A DNA stretch of 55,156 nt from a virus (Duplodnaviria; Caudoviricetes). Of the stretch, positions 17,914-55,156 are shown one piece after another. The notes under the pieces are model-generated. The model was not told the DNA's origin, did not search any database, and was given only the letters and a program-made list of their open reading frames with translations. Every line of letters begins with the position of its first letter. The stretch's first letter is position 1. The position numbers and the translations under genes were made by a program. The stretch is taken from the IMG/VR virus record IMGVR_UViG_3300021959_000053, positions 1-55,156 of that record, one strand, 5' to 3'.

Positions 17914-17997
17914 AGTATATACTTAAAGTATTACTTTATTAACTATTATTTATTATTATTAATAATAATTACTCTTGATATACTTTAAGTATATACT
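17914..17997. repeat. 18-bp perfect inverted repeat around an AT-rich spacer
   Basis: AGTATATACTTAAAGTAT (17914-17931) / ATACTTTAAGTATATACT (17980-17997). Confidence 0.85.
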
Positions 17998-18006
17998 CTA
18001 AGTATA

Positions 18007-18035
18007 GTTATAGCACCTTTGAGCCGCGATGTCAA
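18007..18035 (-). promoter_or_regulatory. sigma70-type promoter
   Basis: TTGACA-17 nt-TATAAC with TG extension. Confidence 0.8.
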
Positions 18036-18111: not shown

Positions 18112-18140
18112 ATTATACACCATGTTACTTAACGTGTCAA
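18112..18140 (-). promoter_or_regulatory. sigma70 consensus promoter
   Basis: TTGACA-17 nt-TATAAT. Confidence 0.85.
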
Positions 18141-18279
18141 GGCTTTTCTTAGGTTTTAAGTAAGTTTTAGTAGGTTTACATATAAAATAAAGTGGTTTAC
18201 AGTTTGAAAATACTCCCCGCTGTCATTGTGGGTACATATAACGCCCCGAGGTGGGCTGGCCCCTCTAGCGCTGCCTGTA

Positions 18280-18519
18280 ATACGTCAGGTATACTTACCT
18301 ATTTTCTGTGACATTTTTATCACACTACTATGCTATGAGAATACACTCAGTTTTTAGGTCAGTGTTGTTGACATATTAATTTTGTGTACAATTTTAGTTC
18401 AACGTTGAACCATATTTAATTCAAAATGAAACTATAATTTAGTTTAACGTTAAACCTTTTTACAATAGGTCACCACCCCTTACCTATCGGTCTACAATAG
18501 GTAAACACTATTGACCTAA
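18280..18519. promoter_or_regulatory. Four copies of the palindromic operator ATAGGTMA-N7-TKACCTAT
   Basis: 18280-18302, 18354-18376, 18465-18487, 18497-18519. Confidence 0.75.
18397..18455. promoter_or_regulatory. Palindrome array GTTYAACGTTRAAC
   Basis: Perfect at 18397-18410 and 18442-18455, degenerate at 18419-18432. Confidence 0.7.
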
Positions 18520-18530
18520 TTCTATTCTAC

Positions 18531-18567
18531 AAACAAAACAGGAACGAATAGAGAACAAAACGAGAAC
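18531..18567 (+). promoter_or_regulatory. Alphaproteobacterial LexA box array GAAC-N7-GAAC-N7-GAAC
   Basis: GAAC at 18542, 18553, 18564 and AAAC at 18531; 11-bp period. Confidence 0.8.
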
Positions 18568-18642
18568 CACGCCTCAGACCTTCTATTTGCCCCTTAGAAT
18601 GCATCTTTAACCTTTTAGGTACCTTACCACCCTAGAAAACAG

Positions 18643-18679
18643 TTTCACCAAACGTACACCTTTTGTTCTACTTTTGTTC
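18643..18679 (-). promoter_or_regulatory. Second LexA box array in inverted orientation
   Basis: TTTC 18643, GTAC 18654, GTTC 18665, GTTC 18676; 11-bp period. Confidence 0.8.
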
Positions 18680-18826
18680 TCATTTCTTGGGATACTGAAA
18701 TATACTTTCGTATTTCCCGAAACTAAACTATTTTCTATTTATTCTTTTATTCTTTTGTACTACGCGCACCCGCGCCTTTTCATTATATAAATATTGCTAC
18801 TATGCCAAAAGCCTAAAAGTTTACTG

Positions 18827-18931
18827 TAAACTGTTGATTTTAAAGCATAATCAAAATTAATTACATTTATTTACATTATTTTATTCAACGTTTTCAAACA
18901 CTTAGAAAACTAATTATATAACCTATTGATT
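18827..18931. promoter_or_regulatory. IHF consensus sites
   Basis: Minus strand AATCAACAGTTTA (18827-18839) and AATCAATAGGTTA (18919-18931) match WATCAANNNNTTR; one-mismatch site on + at 18892-18904. Confidence 0.65.
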
Positions 18932-18984
18932 TTAAACGATTACTTTTTATTGTGGTTTGTTTTTCCCTATGCCATAACTAATTC

Positions 18985-19400
18985 ATCGAAAGACGGAAAC
19001 GAAAGGAAAACAAAGTGGAGTTGGATGCTCCTAGGATCTAAATTAAATATCCTTGACTAGTACCTACGTGATTTAGTGCGACGGATTTTACGGCATAGCC
19101 TCAATCTGACACTTTATCAAGGCGATACAGCTTGTAGGTGGTTTCTAGCAATGTGATTTTAAGGTGGCTTCACTGGTATCATGCCCAAACCATGTGTTAA
19201 GGGTTGGTGTTCGTTCATTATTAAAATCAAAAGTGGTTGATTGCCAGTAGTCTCTTTTAAAATGGGGATTGGTATCGGACTTCACTGATGGATAGACTGT
19301 TGCAGCATTCGGGTGAAGGTAGAGAAAGCGAAAGACCACAATCATTTTCATATATAAGCATATCATTATGGTGTGTTTTTATTAGAAAATGAAAAGGATA
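18985..19400 (+). ncRNA. Candidate structured RNA / long early leader
   Basis: No credible sense ORF; multiple nested stems. Confidence 0.45.
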
Positions 19401-19405
19401 ATAAC

Positions 19406-19915
19406 ATGACAAACAATATCAAAACAATTGAAGATAAGTTCGTAAATGCTATGGGTTCAGGTGTTGCCGCAAGTGGGCACCTCTTAACTCTTATGGTGAA
19501 TACCGCACAGTCTGAAGATGGCCGTAATCTTGCAAGTGCTATTGCTCGTTTAAATAAAAAGCAGGACAAGCAAGGATCAAACGCGGTTCGTCAAGTGATT
19601 GCATCTGTTTTTGTGGGTGCTAAAATTAAGAAAGCTAAGGATAACAAAACAATTTTGCTATCATTAAAGGATGCTAATCTTAATCAAGAGGCCATGCAAC
19701 GCCTTTCGGATGGTGTTAAAAAGGGTCTGTCTCTCCGTTCAACTCTAGCTAAAACTGTAAAAGGTGAGACCGCCAAACCAAAGGAAGTAACTGCTAGCTC
19801 AATTGCTGTACCAGCTGCGAAAAAAGCTGTAAAAGCCAATATAAAGAAAGCTCAATATATGGCAACAATGGAAGCTGCATTCGATGCTGAAATGAAAGAA
19901 AGACTTGCGAAATAA
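19406..19915 (+). CDS. First early protein, basic, with Ala/Lys-rich C-terminus
   Basis: ATG 19406 with AAGGA RBS; codon usage suggests high expression. Confidence 0.75.
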   Translation: MTNNIKTIEDKFVNAMGSGVAASGHLLTLMVNTAQSEDGRNLASAIARLNKKQDKQGSNAVRQVIASVFVGAKIKKAKDNKTILLSLKDANLNQEAMQRLSDGVKKGLSLRSTLAKTVKGETAKPKEVTASSIAVPAAKKAVKANIKKAQYMATMEAAFDAEMKERLAK

Positions 19916-22718: not shown

Positions 22719-22916
22719 ATGTCTTTTATCTATGTAACTAAAGTTATGTCCGACGACAGCATGATGGCATCCACTACTACTAAGGATTTACGTCGAGCCG
22801 TAGTTTGGGCCTCAAAGAATACGATGGAAGGTGATACGGTTATTATCAAAGAGGGCTATGTGTGTGCAGATCAAGGTATTGATGAGGCCAACACAATACT
22901 CAACTATGTGGTATAA
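22719..22916 (+). CDS. Hypothetical protein
   Basis: GGAG RBS. Confidence 0.6.
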   Translation: MSFIYVTKVMSDDSMMASTTTKDLRRAVVWASKNTMEGDTVIIKEGYVCADQGIDEANTILNYVV

Positions 22917-22971
22917 GTGTCACACATAAATAAAGTATATGTACAATATCTCCTACTTTACTACTTTAGAC

Positions 22972-23000
22972 TTGACGAACTAAATGTATACCCTTAAAAT
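22972..23000 (+). promoter_or_regulatory. sigma70-type promoter
   Basis: TTGACG-17 nt-TAAAAT. Confidence 0.7.
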
Positions 23001-23088
23001 AACCTTAGGTTTACTTAAAGTTTTATTAATGTTTATGAGTAAAGTAGGAATAGAGTATATACTTAAAGTATAAGAAAGGATAATACAA

Positions 23089-23574
23089 ATGCCTAATCAC
23101 TGTGATCAACAAGTTAATATTAGTGGGCCTTGGGCTATGGTGCAGGAGCTATATTTTAATTTAAGCAGAGGACATGATGCCAGGTTTTGTGATGCCGTAA
23201 CACCAATGCCACTGACTAAGGTAGCTGATGCGTACAACTGGCGTTGGGATAACTGGGGTACAAAGTGGGACGTTTGTGATGTATACCTTGCGTCTGATTT
23301 AACTTGGTATGAAGACGAATCAACAGGAGACTTTGACTTCACTTGTTGGACAGCATGGGGTCCACCTGTACCTATCTGGGATAAGCTATTTGGTCTAGGT
23401 GTAAAAGTCCACGCTTATTACCAAGACGAAGGTTGTATGTTTGAAGGTAAGTACATAGATGGAAGGAACACATCTTGGGATCCATCAGAAATAGACATAG
23501 ATACTTTAGACAGACTAAGAGATGAGGATGATTTCGTTAGTTGTTTGTGTAGAAGTTATTCACACCAAATTTAA
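23089..23574 (+). CDS. YubB/DUF1281-like ferredoxin-fold protein
   Basis: MPNHC start, YNWRWDNWGTKWDV, TAWGPP, DEGCMFEG. Confidence 0.75.
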   Translation: MPNHCDQQVNISGPWAMVQELYFNLSRGHDARFCDAVTPMPLTKVADAYNWRWDNWGTKWDVCDVYLASDLTWYEDESTGDFDFTCWTAWGPPVPIWDKLFGLGVKVHAYYQDEGCMFEGKYIDGRNTSWDPSEIDIDTLDRLRDEDDFVSCLCRSYSHQI

Positions 23575-24218: not shown

Positions 24219-24295
24219 GTCTCCTTAGCTCAACTGGATAGAGCAACTGCCTTCTAAGCAGTAGGTTACAGGTTCGAGTCCTGTAGGGGACACCA
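24219..24295 (+). tRNA. tRNA-Arg(TCT)
   Basis: Acceptor GTCTCCT/AGGGGAC, D-arm, anticodon stem ACTGC/GCAGT with loop CTTCTAA, GGTTCGAGTCC T-arm, encoded CCA. Confidence 0.95.
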
Positions 24296-43316: not shown

Positions 43317-45197
43317 CTATCCTATTATTTTTCCAATAAGGTATCCAATACCTTCTCTATTCTTTCTTCTTGTTTCTTGTGCTGACTCCCACTTAGCGAG
43401 TTCTACCTGTTTGTCTGCAAGAAAAACACTTAATGCTCTATCTGTTGCATTCTCTGATTGCCTAAATGCATAATCCATAATGTCACGTTCACGCTGCCAT
43501 ATCTGATCTAAACCACTTTGCGTAAAGGTGTTAGCAGTCATAGCTGCTTGCATATTTGACTGGTTTTGTGCGGCAGCATTAAGTGTAGACGTATTCTGTC
43601 GCCACTGTGCATTAGCTTGAGCAACAACTAAAGCATTTGTTGCGTTAAACTGATCACGCTGTATTTCCATTCCTGCATTAAACTTTTGTATATCATTATT
43701 TAAGTTAGCAAAGAACTGATTAGTTTGATTTTCACTAGCTGCATTAAACTGAGAAGCAGCATTTACAGCAGCTTGGTCTGTCAATAAAGCCTGTATGTTT
43801 TGTTGAGTTTTAAACATATCTGTTTGTTGCTGCAGGTCCATGTTCTTCATGTCCATTGAAAGAAAAGACTGAGCATTTGTAACAGCAGCTTGTTGGCGAT
43901 TATTAAGGTTAGCCATGTCTACTTGAGACATAGCAGCAGCGTCTGCTAGTACCTTAGCATTAACTGCATTCATGTTATTAATGTCAACTGTCTGAGCCAA
44001 ATTAGCATTCTCTAAAGCTATTTGTTGCTCAGCTGTGAAATTTATATTAGCTACATCAGATATCTTAGCAGCATTAGCTACTCTAGTCTGAAATTCCTGA
44101 GTAAACTGCATACCCAAGAAGTTGGCTCTCTGTTCTGCAGCAAACATAGCCGTCTGTTGACGGTTGGATAAGTTTTGAGATTCAAACTTAGAAAAGGTTT
44201 CTGCGTCCGTCATTGCAATAGGAAGAGCAGACTCCATAGCAGCTTGTACAACAGCTTGACCAGCCATACTAGAAGCACCTAGACCTCTAGCCGATAAAGC
44301 TTCAGTTGCTTTCCTAAGGGCTCCTGCGGCCCAAGCTGGGGGCTCTTCATCTTCAAAGTCTTCCATAAGACCTTCGAGTTGACCCTTAACTGTAGCTTGC
44401 TTAGAGGGATCAGCTTGTGCAGCTTGAATATCTAGAGCTTCATCTACAGCCGCCATATCAACAGCTGACCCTGATATAAGTTCTCCAGATTCTATCTTAC
44501 GTTTTGCAGCAGGTTTAACTACTTGAGCTTCTTCAATTTGATCAACATCTAGATCAAGCCTAGCAAGTTTAGTTGGGTCAGTACCTGCAGCCTTTACTTT
44601 AGCGTCATCCGAGACTGTACCTGTAGCCGCTGTTAACTTATCAGTTTCTTTAGCTACATCAGCTGAAACTGTACTAGCTGTTGCTTTAGCTGCGTCTTTT
44701 GAGTCTGCAGCAGACACTACAGGTGCATCACCCGTAAGGGTTCCCGTGCCTTCTTTTATAAGGCCAGTGTTAGCATCTATTTTAGCTACTTCAGACTTGT
44801 AGACAAGTGACGATGGATCTTCTATTGCTTTCTTCTGGGCTATGTAGGAAGCATCCCGAATTACCTTAGCTCTCGCAGCGTTTTCTTTATCTCGTTCTTT
44901 CTGGGCCTTCCTAGCTTCTTCTTCCTCTTTCTCTATTCTTTTCTTTTCTGCTTCTTCTTTAGCTTTTTTCTCTTCTTCTTTTCTTTTCTTCTCTGCTTCT
45001 TCTTTAGCAACCTGAGCTGCACCCTTTCTAGCTACAGCTCTTGCTCTTGCTGCAGCTGCCTCACGAGCTTTGTACTCAGGAGAGTTTTTATCAGTAGCCC
45101 ATGCAGGTGCTTCTCCACCCTCACCCTCAAAGGTAATTAACCCAGAAGCCCTTGGGTGTAAGTAGCGCTGCAAAGAAAAAGGGTTATAAATCATCAT
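43317..45197 (-). CDS. Internal virion (ejection) protein, Gln/Asn/Ala-rich
   Basis: PAWAAGA, GLGASSMAG, NLSNRQQ, QFNA repeats. Confidence 0.65.
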   Translation of the reverse strand: MMIYNPFSLQRYLHPRASGLITFEGEGGEAPAWATDKNSPEYKAREAAAARARAVARKGAAQVAKEEAEKKRKEEEKKAKEEAEKKRIEKEEEEARKAQKERDKENAARAKVIRDASYIAQKKAIEDPSSLVYKSEVAKIDANTGLIKEGTGTLTGDAPVVSAADSKDAAKATASTVSADVAKETDKLTAATGTVSDDAKVKAAGTDPTKLARLDLDVDQIEEAQVVKPAAKRKIESGELISGSAVDMAAVDEALDIQAAQADPSKQATVKGQLEGLMEDFEDEEPPAWAAGALRKATEALSARGLGASSMAGQAVVQAAMESALPIAMTDAETFSKFESQNLSNRQQTAMFAAEQRANFLGMQFTQEFQTRVANAAKISDVANINFTAEQQIALENANLAQTVDINNMNAVNAKVLADAAAMSQVDMANLNNRQQAAVTNAQSFLSMDMKNMDLQQQTDMFKTQQNIQALLTDQAAVNAASQFNAASENQTNQFFANLNNDIQKFNAGMEIQRDQFNATNALVVAQANAQWRQNTSTLNAAAQNQSNMQAAMTANTFTQSGLDQIWQRERDIMDYAFRQSENATDRALSVFLADKQVELAKWESAQETRRKNREGIGYLIGKIIG

Positions 45198-45341
45198 AAA
45201 GTCCTTCTATGTACTCTATTTTATTGTAAACTTCTTTGAAAGTGGACCTCAGTGGTTTCAAAGAGTTCCTTTTAGTTTTATACTCTATTTGATTAGAGTA
45301 AATATAAAAGCAATAGTATGTATTAGTATAACTATAAGTTA

Positions 45342-45370
45342 ATTATACAGGTATATACTATACTTGTCAA
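45342..45370 (-). promoter_or_regulatory. sigma70 consensus promoter for the ejection-protein operon
   Basis: TTGACA-17 nt-TATAAT. Confidence 0.85.
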
Positions 45371-45413
45371 TAGTTAATTTGGAGTTAAGGTACAAATACC
45401 TTAGGTGTGTGTC

Positions 45414-45524
45414 TTACTTTGCGTCTGCGATAGAAAAGTTTCCGTTCTGAATAAGATTGCGATTACCCAAAGCGGAGTCATCGTATACATTAGCTAACTC
45501 TGCTAAACCTCTTGCTTTAGTCAT
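45414..45524 (-). pseudogene. Truncated tail-fibre gene remnant (36 aa)
   Basis: MTKARGLAELANVYDDSALGNRNLIQNGNFSIADAK-stop, AAGGA RBS. Confidence 0.6.
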
Positions 45525-45535
45525 TAGCTATTTCC

Positions 45536-45817
45536 TTACTCTGGTGTTTCTTGTGCAGCGTCACGTTCTGCACGAGTTTGATAATCCTCACGGGCTGTTA
45601 CAAGCGCCACAAAGTCAGCCTGATTGCTGGGAATAGGGTCTGTAAAACTGCCGTCATTCATCAGTTTGGTAGTCCATTCTTGCTGCATACGTTTCCAGCA
45701 ATTGTTCTTTTTGCCGTCCATTGCAGCCTGTAGCCAATCATCAATGTTTAGCAGATCGTTATGCAAGATAGCTTGTTCAGTGTCAGTAAGCTCAACCGTT
45801 AGTGTTATTGTTGCCAT
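45536..45817 (-). CDS. Tail fibre accessory protein
   Basis: 93 aa, GKKNNCWKRM, follows the C1q fibre gene. Confidence 0.6.
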   Translation of the reverse strand: MATITLTVELTDTEQAILHNDLLNIDDWLQAAMDGKKNNCWKRMQQEWTTKLMNDGSFTDPIPSNQADFVALVTAREDYQTRAERDAAQETPE

Positions 45818-53109: not shown

Positions 53110-54822
53110 CTAGCGTCTTGCCGCTGCTGTAAATTCTAATTGAAAGCCTTTTAGTGAGTAAGGAAAAGACACCCCATTGTCTACTACCCTTAAAGCTACT
53201 GAAAAACCTGATCCCTCAACAGGTTGTCTAATCAATGGATCCGATTGACCACCATAAGTAGATTGACCGTACAAACCACTTCCGTATAAAGCTACAACTT
53301 GACTTGAATCAAAAGGATAAGCGTCGGGTCTAGCTGAGTCAGGGCTTTCATAGTCATACCTTAGAAATAACTGTGAATTAAGAACCCCCTCGGGTGCATA
53401 GTTAATAATAACACGTTGAAAAGCTTTACGGATACCAGCATCTCCTGCTGTAATGTCTGTACTACGATAACGTCCAATAATTGTAGTTCCATCAAAGGTG
53501 TTGCCTTGTTGATCTTGGTACACGTACCCGTCGTAACCACCCATTATATTAAAGTAACTACCTTGAAATTCACCAGTATCACTAGAGTACATTTTCAAAC
53601 CTTTAGTTGTAGCAAACTCATAGCCACTCGGTTTAAGACTGCAGATTACACCGTCAGTATATATATCTCTTTCAGCAGTACTACCAAATATAAGTCTATA
53701 CTGAGTTTTATTAGGAATAACGTATGACTCAAACTCGTCAACATCTCCTCTATTTTTAAATAATTCTTGGATAGGGCTTGAAATAGAACTTAAATTAACG
53801 TCACCAATCTTTTCTGTACCAGCAATAGTACGAAGACCATCAGGCCCTAAGAATATAACATCACCAGCAAATTCTTTAATAGTCCATCCATTCCTACAGC
53901 CAATTTCTCTTGTAATTGGGGTAAGTTGAAAGTCTGATTGAGAACTACCTGTCAAACGATAAATTCTATTAGCTGAGAAAATGTAAAGGTTATCCCTAAA
54001 AACTATCATCCCAGTTACAGGCGCATCAATTGCAAAACTACCTGCTCCATTTGCTAAACTAAAATTGTTTATAGTTAAAGGTGCTGTAAAAACAATTTCT
54101 TCTGGATTACTTGACATTCCTGCATAAAACCCAGTGTTTTTAAATACAGCAATAAATTTAGGATCAGCTGGAGCATTTGTACCATTAATATCTGTTATCG
54201 AAGATCCATTCCAGTACGAAGCATGGTTAGTTCCATCCGCAAAAGCAAGTAAGTCTTCACCTGTGTAGTCAAACCTAGTGTGCGTGTACTTTTTTGCATT
54301 TGTTCTACCAGAATCAATAGAAGTCCATGTTTGTTGAATTGAAAGATTATCAACATGCGAAGCAGCTGAAGTACTGTTAGCACCCCTAGTGCAACCTGTA
54401 AATGTAGTTGTCGTTAAACCTGTATATGTTATTTGCTCAGTACCTACAAGAAGTGTACCAGTCGTTGAAAAACCAGTAGTACTATCAACCGTTAATGTAG
54501 TAACACTTGCATTAATAGCTCCATCTAAACTATTAGTCTGAGCTGAAGATCTATAGATAGCTGAACCACGAGCACCTATTACTTCTCCTGAGTAGAAAGC
54601 ACACATAAGAATAGGTTCATCATCATCTGACGCTGTAAATGGAATCTTTTGAGAAGTCCATTTAGTGTACCCATCTATTCTTCTGTAGCCACCTGAAGTA
54701 TCTGGCTCAAAGTTTTGTAACTCAAGGGCAGCACCAGGTGGTACCTCAAAGTTAGACTTATCTAAAATTAAGCCACCTTGTAATGGGAATATAAAAGGAG
54801 AAAGACCAGTTGTATCAGCCAT
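53110..54822 (-). CDS. Tail nozzle / tail tubular protein B-like
   Basis: 570 aa; GGL..., NFEP..GGYRRIDG, IFLGPDGLR; follows the adaptor gene on the circular map. Confidence 0.7.
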   Translation of the reverse strand: MADTTGLSPFIFPLQGGLILDKSNFEVPPGAALELQNFEPDTSGGYRRIDGYTKWTSQKIPFTASDDDEPILMCAFYSGEVIGARGSAIYRSSAQTNSLDGAINASVTTLTVDSTTGFSTTGTLLVGTEQITYTGLTTTTFTGCTRGANSTSAASHVDNLSIQQTWTSIDSGRTNAKKYTHTRFDYTGEDLLAFADGTNHASYWNGSSITDINGTNAPADPKFIAVFKNTGFYAGMSSNPEEIVFTAPLTINNFSLANGAGSFAIDAPVTGMIVFRDNLYIFSANRIYRLTGSSQSDFQLTPITREIGCRNGWTIKEFAGDVIFLGPDGLRTIAGTEKIGDVNLSSISSPIQELFKNRGDVDEFESYVIPNKTQYRLIFGSTAERDIYTDGVICSLKPSGYEFATTKGLKMYSSDTGEFQGSYFNIMGGYDGYVYQDQQGNTFDGTTIIGRYRSTDITAGDAGIRKAFQRVIINYAPEGVLNSQLFLRYDYESPDSARPDAYPFDSSQVVALYGSGLYGQSTYGGQSDPLIRQPVEGSGFSVALRVVDNGVSFPYSLKGFQLEFTAAARR

Positions 54823-55156
54823 ATTGCTTTTTCTCTTTTAAGAAACTGAAGGAAATACAGATGTACTTACACCTGGGCCAGAAAGTACAGTTGAACGTAT
54901 GTACTTAAAACGATTAACAAGATTAGTTTGCATCTGTGTAATACCGCTATTAAATCTAGACCAGTTTGCTTGATATTGCTCTAGCTCACCTCTATACTGG
55001 TAAGCATAAGATGTAGCACCATCTGCAATAACTGGACGGTATAGCTCAGGTATGTCAGGTACATCTGATGCTTCTGACAGAGCTACTGTTGAAGCGTAAT
55101 ACTCAAACTTTAATGTATAAGCTTTATCTGGGTAAGGGTATAAAAGATAGTTATTA
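54579..55156. repeat. Terminal overlap, right copy
   Basis: Matches 1-578. Confidence 0.97.
54838..55156 (-). CDS. Partial duplicate of the 3' end of the adaptor gene (260-982)
   Basis: Lies within the terminal overlap. Confidence 0.85.
   Translation of the reverse strand, partial: NNYLLYPYPDKAYTLKFEYYASTVALSEASDVPDIPELYRPVIADGATSYAYQYRGELEQYQANWSRFNSGITQMQTNLVNRFKYIRSTVLSGPGVSTSVFPSVS

Follow-up and report, generated by a model that had tools for sequence, protein, structure and literature searches.

Genome organization and the region between the two arms

The window analysed here is the entire IMG/VR virus record IMGVR_UViG_3300021959_000053, with 55,156 bp, and this work concerns the gene-free gap between its two gene arms, in particular positions 18170-18980, where sites of protein-binding type lie beside a conserved element of 88 nt. 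According to PHROG and Pfam scans of the open reading frames (ORFs) of the window, the genome is that of a podovirus. The minus-strand arm carries lysis, terminase, portal, capsid and tail genes, and the plus-strand arm harbors small early genes, thymidylate synthase, a T7-like primase-helicase, a family A polymerase, ribonucleotide reductase, PhoH and MazG. The terminase large subunit (TerL) and the DNA polymerase are 72% and 62% identical, respectively, to those of the Roseobacter phages CRP-9/CRP-13. Because the relatives of both proteins are CRP-13 and CRP-9, followed by other CRP phages and Puniceispirillum phage HMO-2011, this is an HMO-2011-type phage; pelagiphages are also among the remoter relatives. 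HMO-2011-type phages have been described as dominant and broadly distributed marine viruses (PMC9038755).

The gap runs from 17800 to ~19405, and no ORF of at least 70 aa was found between 17799 and 19145. Equivalent gene-free gaps are present in CRP-9 (1255 nt), CRP-13 (964 nt), CRP-2 (1209 nt) and CRP-1 (927 nt); the gap DNA itself, being too diverged for blastn, gave no blastn match among deposited phages. A search of Rfam 15 over the region returned no family, its sole matches (E = 0.44 and 4.5) being to eukaryotic RNA families over palindromes. Most early ORFs have no known family in PHROGs or Pfam. No Pfam DNA-binding domain was detected in the 38 small ORFs of the window, and the PHROG and Pfam scans recognized no initiator family. 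A PHROG scan of 64 ORFs gave no match to a phage RNA polymerase gene, and the virion protein of 1243 aa was rejected as a hidden RNA polymerase, as it has neither a Pfam or PHROG match nor a DxDGD motif.

The following features were found in the core of the gap.

18173 and 18194 (18173..18201), plus strand: two copies of GGTTTACA, 21 bp apart, which are the 2 genome matches of this motif
18190..18276, plus strand: 88-nt conserved element, GTGGTTWACAG-N4/5-AAAATACYCCYCKCTGTCA...TATATA..ACG..C-rich..TGGCCC
18281, 18355, 18466 and 18498 (18281..18518), no strand: TAGGTMA-N7-TKACCTA palindromes, all 4 genome matches at no more than 2 mismatches
18307..18324, no strand: TGTGA-N8-TCACA palindrome, the 1 genome match against 0.08 expected; relatives carry TGTGATCACA instead
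18396..18456, no strand: MarR-operator-type palindromes of 16 bp, three in phase at intervals of 22-23 nt, AGTTCAACGTTGAACC, AATTCAAAATGAAACT (degenerate) and AGTTTAACGTTAAACC
18531..18567, plus strand: left LexA-type array, AAAC/GAAC-N7 in four units with an 11-bp period, found in relatives too
18654..18679, plus strand: right LexA-type array, GTAC/GTTC-N7 in three units, inverted relative to the left array and ~90 nt away from it, found in relatives too
18827-18839 and 18919-18931, minus strand: two IHF-consensus sites, WATCAANNNNTTR, both inside an 18-nt direct repeat in the AT-rich flank

An earlier note, made from the sequence alone, had listed these motif families, and all are present within a few bases of where it placed them. 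Its description of the region as densely set with protein-binding-type sites of several families, outside strong promoters, was borne out. Two of its copy numbers require qualification. The ATAGGT family does have four matches, but only 2 are exact (18466 and 18498) and the copies at 18281 and 18355 are degenerate, with 1 mismatch each. Likewise GTTYAACGTTRAAC, given as three copies, is exact at 18397 and 18442 only, while the third is a 2-mismatch copy (18418-18433) lying exactly midway between them in the 22-23-nt phase. The GC-rich patch at 18243-18275, which the note had counted as an item of its own, is real but forms part of the 88-nt element.

Each motif family has its sites mainly in 18170-18980, a stretch that makes up 1.5% of the window. 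Counts over the whole window are only modestly above those of dinucleotide shuffles, the count of GAAC-N7-GAAC being reached in 4 of 100, so the signal that goes beyond chance is the clustering of the sites and their conservation in relatives. This applies also to the IHF-type motif WATCAANNNNTTR, whose 5 genome matches (2 of them in the region) are not above the 3.7 expected; its support is conservation, in relatives L023, L040 and L045, and not number.

A single-copy element conserved in the group

An alignment of the 88-nt element covers 25 relatives, CRP-1, CRP-13 and the SAR116 phage HMO-2011 among them, and a pattern search found it in 39 IMG/VR contigs. It is single copy in the window (nhmmer E = 4e-15 at this position, 5.4 for the next best), and neither the element nor prophage copies were found in 185,579 bacterial and archaeal species genomes. 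The second GGTTTACA copy opens the element, and relatives carry TTAACCAC...GTGGTTAAC in place of the two copies; by eye, TTAACCAC resembles a DnaA box at only 7-8 of 9 positions.

Several identities were considered for the element. A repeated promoter class was ruled out by its single copy, and a structured RNA by conservation at the level of sequence and not of pairing. Readings as a sigma-54, sigma-32 or ECF (extracytoplasmic function) promoter or as a CtrA box (TTAA-N7-TTAA) failed, by eye, on spacing. The period is 12 nt, not 11, and the -35/-10-like spacing varies from 16 to 19 nt. Local complementary stretches were seen by eye in some lineages. Since it is the sequence that is conserved and not pairing, the element would suit a site that acts as DNA and is unique in the genome, for example an origin or packaging signal, and it is likely to be a replication origin or another unique cis-acting site. 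The phased repeats and an AT-rich unwinding element of the region are as in an iteron-type replication origin. Of all 80-nt windows in the 55 kb, the two richest in AT flank the battery of sites, one on each side, and the second of them (18857-18936) lies at the IHF-type sites. A third such window in rank, 45270-45349, lies far away in a gap between tail genes (45197-45536).

LexA-type and MarR-type sites and their host counterparts

The motif GTTCN7GTTC is the Caulobacter SOS box (PMC9578287, Table 1), and GTTCttgttatGTTC is given as an example of an SOS box elsewhere (bioRxiv 2025.01.26.634973). Three exact pairs of this alphaproteobacterial LexA box were found in the region, at 18542 and 18553 on the plus strand and 18665 on the minus strand, out of 4 GAAC-N7-GAAC matches in the genome; the extension of the arrays to four and three units was read by eye. 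The arrays do not lie at a promoter, as LexA boxes would, being ~250-450 nt from the predicted early promoter and at least ~390 nt from the predicted leftward promoter PL2. The LexA_DNA_bind domain is absent from all 5 phage records searched, four of them near-complete. By sequence, the GAAC/GTTC arrays look like host LexA sites.

The phased palindromes have a closer counterpart in bacteria. Pairs of GTTTAA-N2-TTAAAC palindromes separated by 8-30 nt were sought in the species genomes, and 55 bacterial loci have them. In Enterobacteriaceae and enterococci the pairs stand beside LacI-family and sugar-transport genes, and in marine Alpha- and Gammaproteobacteria beside TonB-receptor loci or directly 5' of an ORF that begins with a twin-arginine motif. 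This ORF, of 374-391 aa, lies just 3' of the pair at 8 of the 15 loci inspected; 3 of 7 such ORFs scanned belong to the Pfam nitroreductase family, and no family was named for the other 4. A nitroreductase-like gene of this kind is present in 52 of 401 sampled Alphaproteobacteria. Its upstream region reads by eye, in 27 of 30 cases, as a -35, a palindrome, a TATA-like -10, a second palindrome and then the ribosome-binding site, and the next gene is of the MarR family in all 11 co-directional ORFs. Three operator classes were distinguished, AGTTYAA-N2-TTRAACT (12 regions), AGTTCGATATCGAACT-like (~7) and ATATTCC-N3-GGAATAT-like (~6). In these alphaproteobacterial loci (L159-L188), where a Tat-signal (twin-arginine) nitroreductase-family gene is followed by the MarR-family regulator, the paired operators vary by taxon, and the operon is a neat case of co-diversification of regulator and operator.

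The AGTTYAA-N2-TTRAACT class of the hosts includes both half-site variants of the window. The palindromes AGTTCAACGTTGAACC and AGTTTAACGTTAAACC compare with AGTTCAACATTGAACT, AGTTTAACGTTAAACT and similar host operators, the spacing is 22-23 nt in the window and 21-23 nt in the hosts, and the phage sites agree with the host MarR-type ones in their TAG...CTA flanks and variable centre. No consensus promoter was found over the phage sites, in contrast to the host sites that bracket a -10. In the host the binder would be the MarR protein itself, judging from gene order. The MarR_2 domain was found in none of 5 near-complete phage genomes, against 14 of 14 in the control.

The proposal of the earlier note that these are sites for host proteins thus stands in part. 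The LexA-type and MarR-type families agree with operators of hosts, and the 5 phage records searched for each gave no cognate domain. Motifs missing from host promoters and unconserved in relatives would have spoken against that proposal, and neither of these two families is of that kind, which favours it. At least two families of sites in the region, therefore, look like host-protein sites by sequence.

For the TAGGTMA-N7-TKACCTA family the resemblance is suggestive only. Similar sites are present in relatives L018, L014 and L051. In Alphaproteobacteria the 401 genomes yielded 27 sites, spread over 25 of them, and the reversed control ~16; 16 of 20 bacterial loci examined have the site outside any ORF of at least 100 aa. 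The genes adjoining them are unrelated, for example gltD-like, dinB, bacA and ilvC.

Variation of the sites among relatives

To the right of the element the content of motifs varies by lineage, although their order is kept. Among 24 related genomes, GAAC/GTTC-N7 pairs were found in 16, arrays of at least 2 copies of TAGTTTAA-N2-TTAAACTA in 13 (the variant of the window not being counted), TGTGATCACA in 12 and TAGGTCA-N7-TGACCTA in 4. Other lineages carry GAGAAC-N2-TTCGCAA, ATTCA-N7-TGAAT or CCCCTAAAGGGG families.

This variation bears on a rather unlikely alternative, in which the repeats are iterons or operators for an initiator or early regulator encoded by the phage, their likeness to host sites being convergence on common AT-rich palindromes. 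The region would then serve as an origin or in regulation without any input from host repressors. Repeats phased at 11-bp and 22-33-bp periods, AT-rich DNA on both flanks and a conserved element in single copy would all be expected, and modules that change along with a mosaic early region would follow as well. The binder could hide among the many early ORFs without known family. Convergence explains poorly an identity of 16-18 bp, flanks and spacing included, with operators of host MarR operons. In addition, lineages with the same first early gene carry different modules. The co-occurrence of motifs and phage genes over the 24 genomes placed lysis-cassette or unassigned small ORFs at the top, and none of the phage protein clusters tracking the GTTTAA arrays resembles a DNA-binding protein; the best tracker, in 11 of the 13 array-bearing genomes, is a lipoprotein-like ORF of the lysis cassette.

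Predicted promoters, AT-rich flank and leader RNA

The sites lie between predicted divergent promoters, and the following features were found on the two sides of them.

17914..18006, no strand: AT-rich inverted repeat with TACTTTAAGTATA palindromes and 40-nt arms that are 80% complementary
18007..18035, minus strand: predicted leftward promoter PL1, TTGACA, 17 nt, TATAAC, read by eye
18112..18140, minus strand: predicted leftward promoter PL2, a perfect TTGACA-17-TATAAT with 12 of 12 consensus positions, conserved in L009
18926..18978, plus strand: predicted early promoter zone, weak, TTGATT-16-TATTGT or TTGTGG-17-CATAAC
18979..19405, plus strand: structured leader RNA of the early operon, ~427 nt, with a hairpin and U-run just before the ribosome-binding site

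The arrangement of PL1, TTGACA-16/17-TATAAY, is found also in L009, CRP-13 and HMO-2011. From the leftward promoters, transcription would enter the 80 nt richest in AT of the whole genome (17916-17995, 88.8% AT), and 4 of the 6 genome matches of TACTTTAAGTATA lie in the inverted repeat there. The remaining 2 are at 23058-23072, where a further copy of the TATACTTTAAGTATA palindrome of the leftward leader (23051-23072) stands between early genes (22916-23089) and may be a shared operator or processing site. On the right, TTGACA-17-TAGATT or CATATT aligns to 18926-18978 in relatives whose first gene is the same, and the weak equivalent in the window overlaps the second IHF-type site. Lying between divergent promoters, the 800 nt of 18170-18980 are probably non-transcribed.

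The leader RNA is well supported by covariation. Over 7 lineages its 83 predicted pairs are 91.3% paired, against 37-46% with the partners slid, and 40 pairs changed on both sides, with none of 500 shuffles as high. No Rfam family matched it. It may act as an attenuator or antiterminator-type element. Within 19373-19408, the GTG start listed for the first early ORF, 19373, falls inside the leader hairpin, and from the alignment with relatives the real start is probably the ATG at 19406. HMO-2011 has a hairpin, AGTCCGACAGCGGACT, repeated before three genes (L052, L053), and shares with CRP-1 (L056) a different conserved leader segment with compensatory changes (GTAATCGTAGATTAC vs GGTATCGAAGATACC). 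Elsewhere in the early arm of the window there is a tRNA-Arg (TCT) gene at 24219-24295. An integrase is annotated in the early arm of CRP-1 and CRP-2 (L094, L095); the PHROG scan of the window showed no integrase family.

Position of the genome ends

The earlier note had placed the physical end of the genome at 18.2-18.3 kb, so that this DNA would enter the cell first. The assembled contigs, which are all the evidence on termini, leave this unsupported rather than disproved (20 runs contain the phage and 4 were compared). They show neither fixed contig ends nor a true terminal repeat. The 4 runs gave no joints and no pile-ups of starts or ends, a signal that contigs could not have shown. Contigs of runs X1 and X5, two of the four, cross the site unbroken. 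In run X7 two contigs of different depth overlap by 30 nt, and loose ends at 18238 carry the sequence of relatives. The assemblies are circular. The ends of the record (1-578 and 54579-55156) are identical at 570 of 578 positions, a circle closed over a strain variant; such an imperfect overlap comes from circular assembly, so neither end of the record is a physical terminus. The genome is in truth ~54.6 kb long, and IMG/VR labels the record 'linear'. The 'DTR' (direct terminal repeat) of G001, the one relative classed with terminal repeats, is likewise an exact 127-nt k-mer overlap.

With these data, it is quite improbable that the element and its neighbours are a packaging site or physical terminus (cos, pac or the boundary of a terminal repeat), with sites for the terminase small subunit and IHF. 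A strongly conserved, partly GC-rich single-copy element with IHF-type sites nearby would suit that role, and contigs in IMG/VR are cut within 2 kb of the element far more on its right (22 of 39) than on its left (1 of 39). These cuts, however, fall at no fixed position relative to the element, being at varying distances from it where conservation stops. The unequal depth of the X7 contigs and the spanning contigs of X1 and X5 also count against a terminus, as do the overlaps of G001 and of the window, which are outcomes of circular assembly, and the HMO-2011 record, annotated as circular. The breaks fit branching of the assembly graph at the boundary between conserved and variable DNA. The packaging type could not be taken from relatives of TerL, for which Pfam gave Terminase_6N only, because the nearest characterised phages are too distant and mixed.

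Proposed function of the region

Observed here are the anatomy and conservation of 18170-18980, the sequence identity of its sites with operators of hosts, and the absence of cognate genes from the phages that were searched. From them we infer binding, origin function and the direction of a regulatory effect, as follows. The region would be the core of a control region between the leftward sigma-70 promoters of the lysis and structural arm and the rightward early promoter with its leader. Its first part, the single-copy element found throughout the group and placed between AT-rich segments, would be the likely origin or unique cis-acting site. The second part would be a lineage-variable cassette of operators borrowed from the host, beside the element, to which host LexA (on the GTTC-N7 arrays), a host MarR-family repressor (on the phased AGTTYAA-N2-TTRAACY palindromes) and IHF may bind, and which includes further palindromes as well. 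Assembled on this DNA, these proteins would make the firing of the origin, the divergent promoters or both depend on the state of the host, with DNA damage as an input through LexA cleavage and a ligand or stress signal through MarR. We put forward this non-transcribed hub of origin and promoters, tentatively, as the most likely of the readings. It comes close to the suggestion in the earlier note of a sensor by which early transcription is gated on host state.

Several facts weigh against it. Since the sites stand clear of the predicted promoters, the mechanism is not simple repression of the operator type. Divergent transcription confounds the minimum of GC skew seen at 18-19 kb, and no initiator gene was recognized. 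Iterons or a response regulator would also account for arrays of 3-4 phased GAAC units. LacI-family genes and TonB-receptor loci have the same 14-bp palindrome beside them, which makes the host binder ambiguous, and the host operators compared came from sampled genomes and may not be of the class of this phage's host or of the RCA host. Among the four phages isolated on the RCA strain FZCC0023, GAAC arrays are present in 1, GTTTAA arrays in 2 and TGTGATCACA in 3, while HMO-2011 has none of the three; since phages of the same strain differ in content, no motif family is obligatory and the cassette is dispensable. Finally, co-occurrence is confounded by relatedness, and a phage-encoded binder is thereby neither named nor excluded.

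The sites might also act by titration. The earlier note suggested a sponge that works at entry, before any phage gene is expressed, but a single genome offers ~7 LexA half-site units and 3 MarR-type sites, and about ten sites per entering genome would be too few to titrate the cellular pool of repressor. A late sponge, in which hundreds of replicated genomes titrate LexA and the MarR-type repressor and so derepress SOS and stress genes of the host for the benefit of the phage, escapes this limit and agrees with multi-copy sites outside promoters that match host operators with no cognate phage gene found. Even so it seems improbable. Many relatives on the same host strain do not have the cassette, no benefit is known, and the literature searched offers no precedent for decoy sites or MarR operators in phages.

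A wider and also unlikely possibility is that the cassette is exchangeable and its operators are copied from the repressors of the phage's own host lineage (LexA, MarR-type and perhaps the binders of the TAGGTCA-N7-TGACCTA, TGTGATCACA and TGCGAA-N3-TTCGCA palindromes). Parked in non-transcribed DNA by the origin, it would read host physiology through multiple inputs, serve after amplification as a sponge that derepresses host regulons, and be swapped as hosts shift, by analogy with the variation of MarR operators between bacterial taxa.

If the cassette does recruit LexA and a MarR-type repressor, a phage with no recognized repressor, integrase or DNA-binding genes would read several host signals through borrowed operators. 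The operator class of a phage could then be matched to that of a host, giving a sequence handle for assigning hosts to uncultured relatives. For isolates such as CRP-9, the reagents gained are an 88-bp candidate origin or cis-acting site, candidate promoters and a new structured leader RNA.

Comparison with known systems

Host LexA boxes on phage DNA are already known, for example in phage GIL01, whose promoter P1 has a set of LexA SOS boxes (PMC4551915). GIL01 encodes no LexA, just as none was found here, and couples its programme to the SOS response through boxes for host LexA on the phage DNA, as is proposed here. It differs in being temperate, in having the boxes within a promoter and in using a phage co-factor, gp7. 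The present phage, in contrast, has no integrase found in the window, and its predicted arrays are direct repeats of the alphaproteobacterial type outside the predicted promoters. The main texts of the HMO-2011-type genome papers searched make no mention of the intergenic region, promoters, termini or LexA.

Autoregulated operons of the MarR family, here the nitroreductase-like/MarR pair, have paired palindromic operators around the -10. The phage shares with them the 16-18-bp AGTTYAA-N2-TTRAACT sequence, the 21-23-nt spacing and, in relatives, the TAG/CTA flanks, but has 3-5 copies, no recognizable promoter beneath them and no marR gene.

Iteron-type origins (P1 oriR, pSC101, lambda ori) combine repeats, AT-rich DNA and IHF sites. 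The region resembles them in its phased repeats, AT-rich unwinding segments, IHF-type sites and place between divergent promoters; it differs in lacking a recognized adjoining initiator gene and in repeats that match host repressor operators. The primary origin of T7 consists of promoters followed by an AT-rich segment, and the phage matches this in its strong promoters, which are directed into the most AT-rich part of its genome, as well as having a primase-helicase of T7 type and a family A polymerase. Unlike in T7, no phage RNA polymerase gene was found and the arms are divergent. Against these systems, four traits appear to be new: a host MarR-type operator arrayed in a phage without a marR gene, candidate host-operator sites placed outside promoters, the exchange of whole site families from lineage to lineage, and the group-wide 88-bp element.

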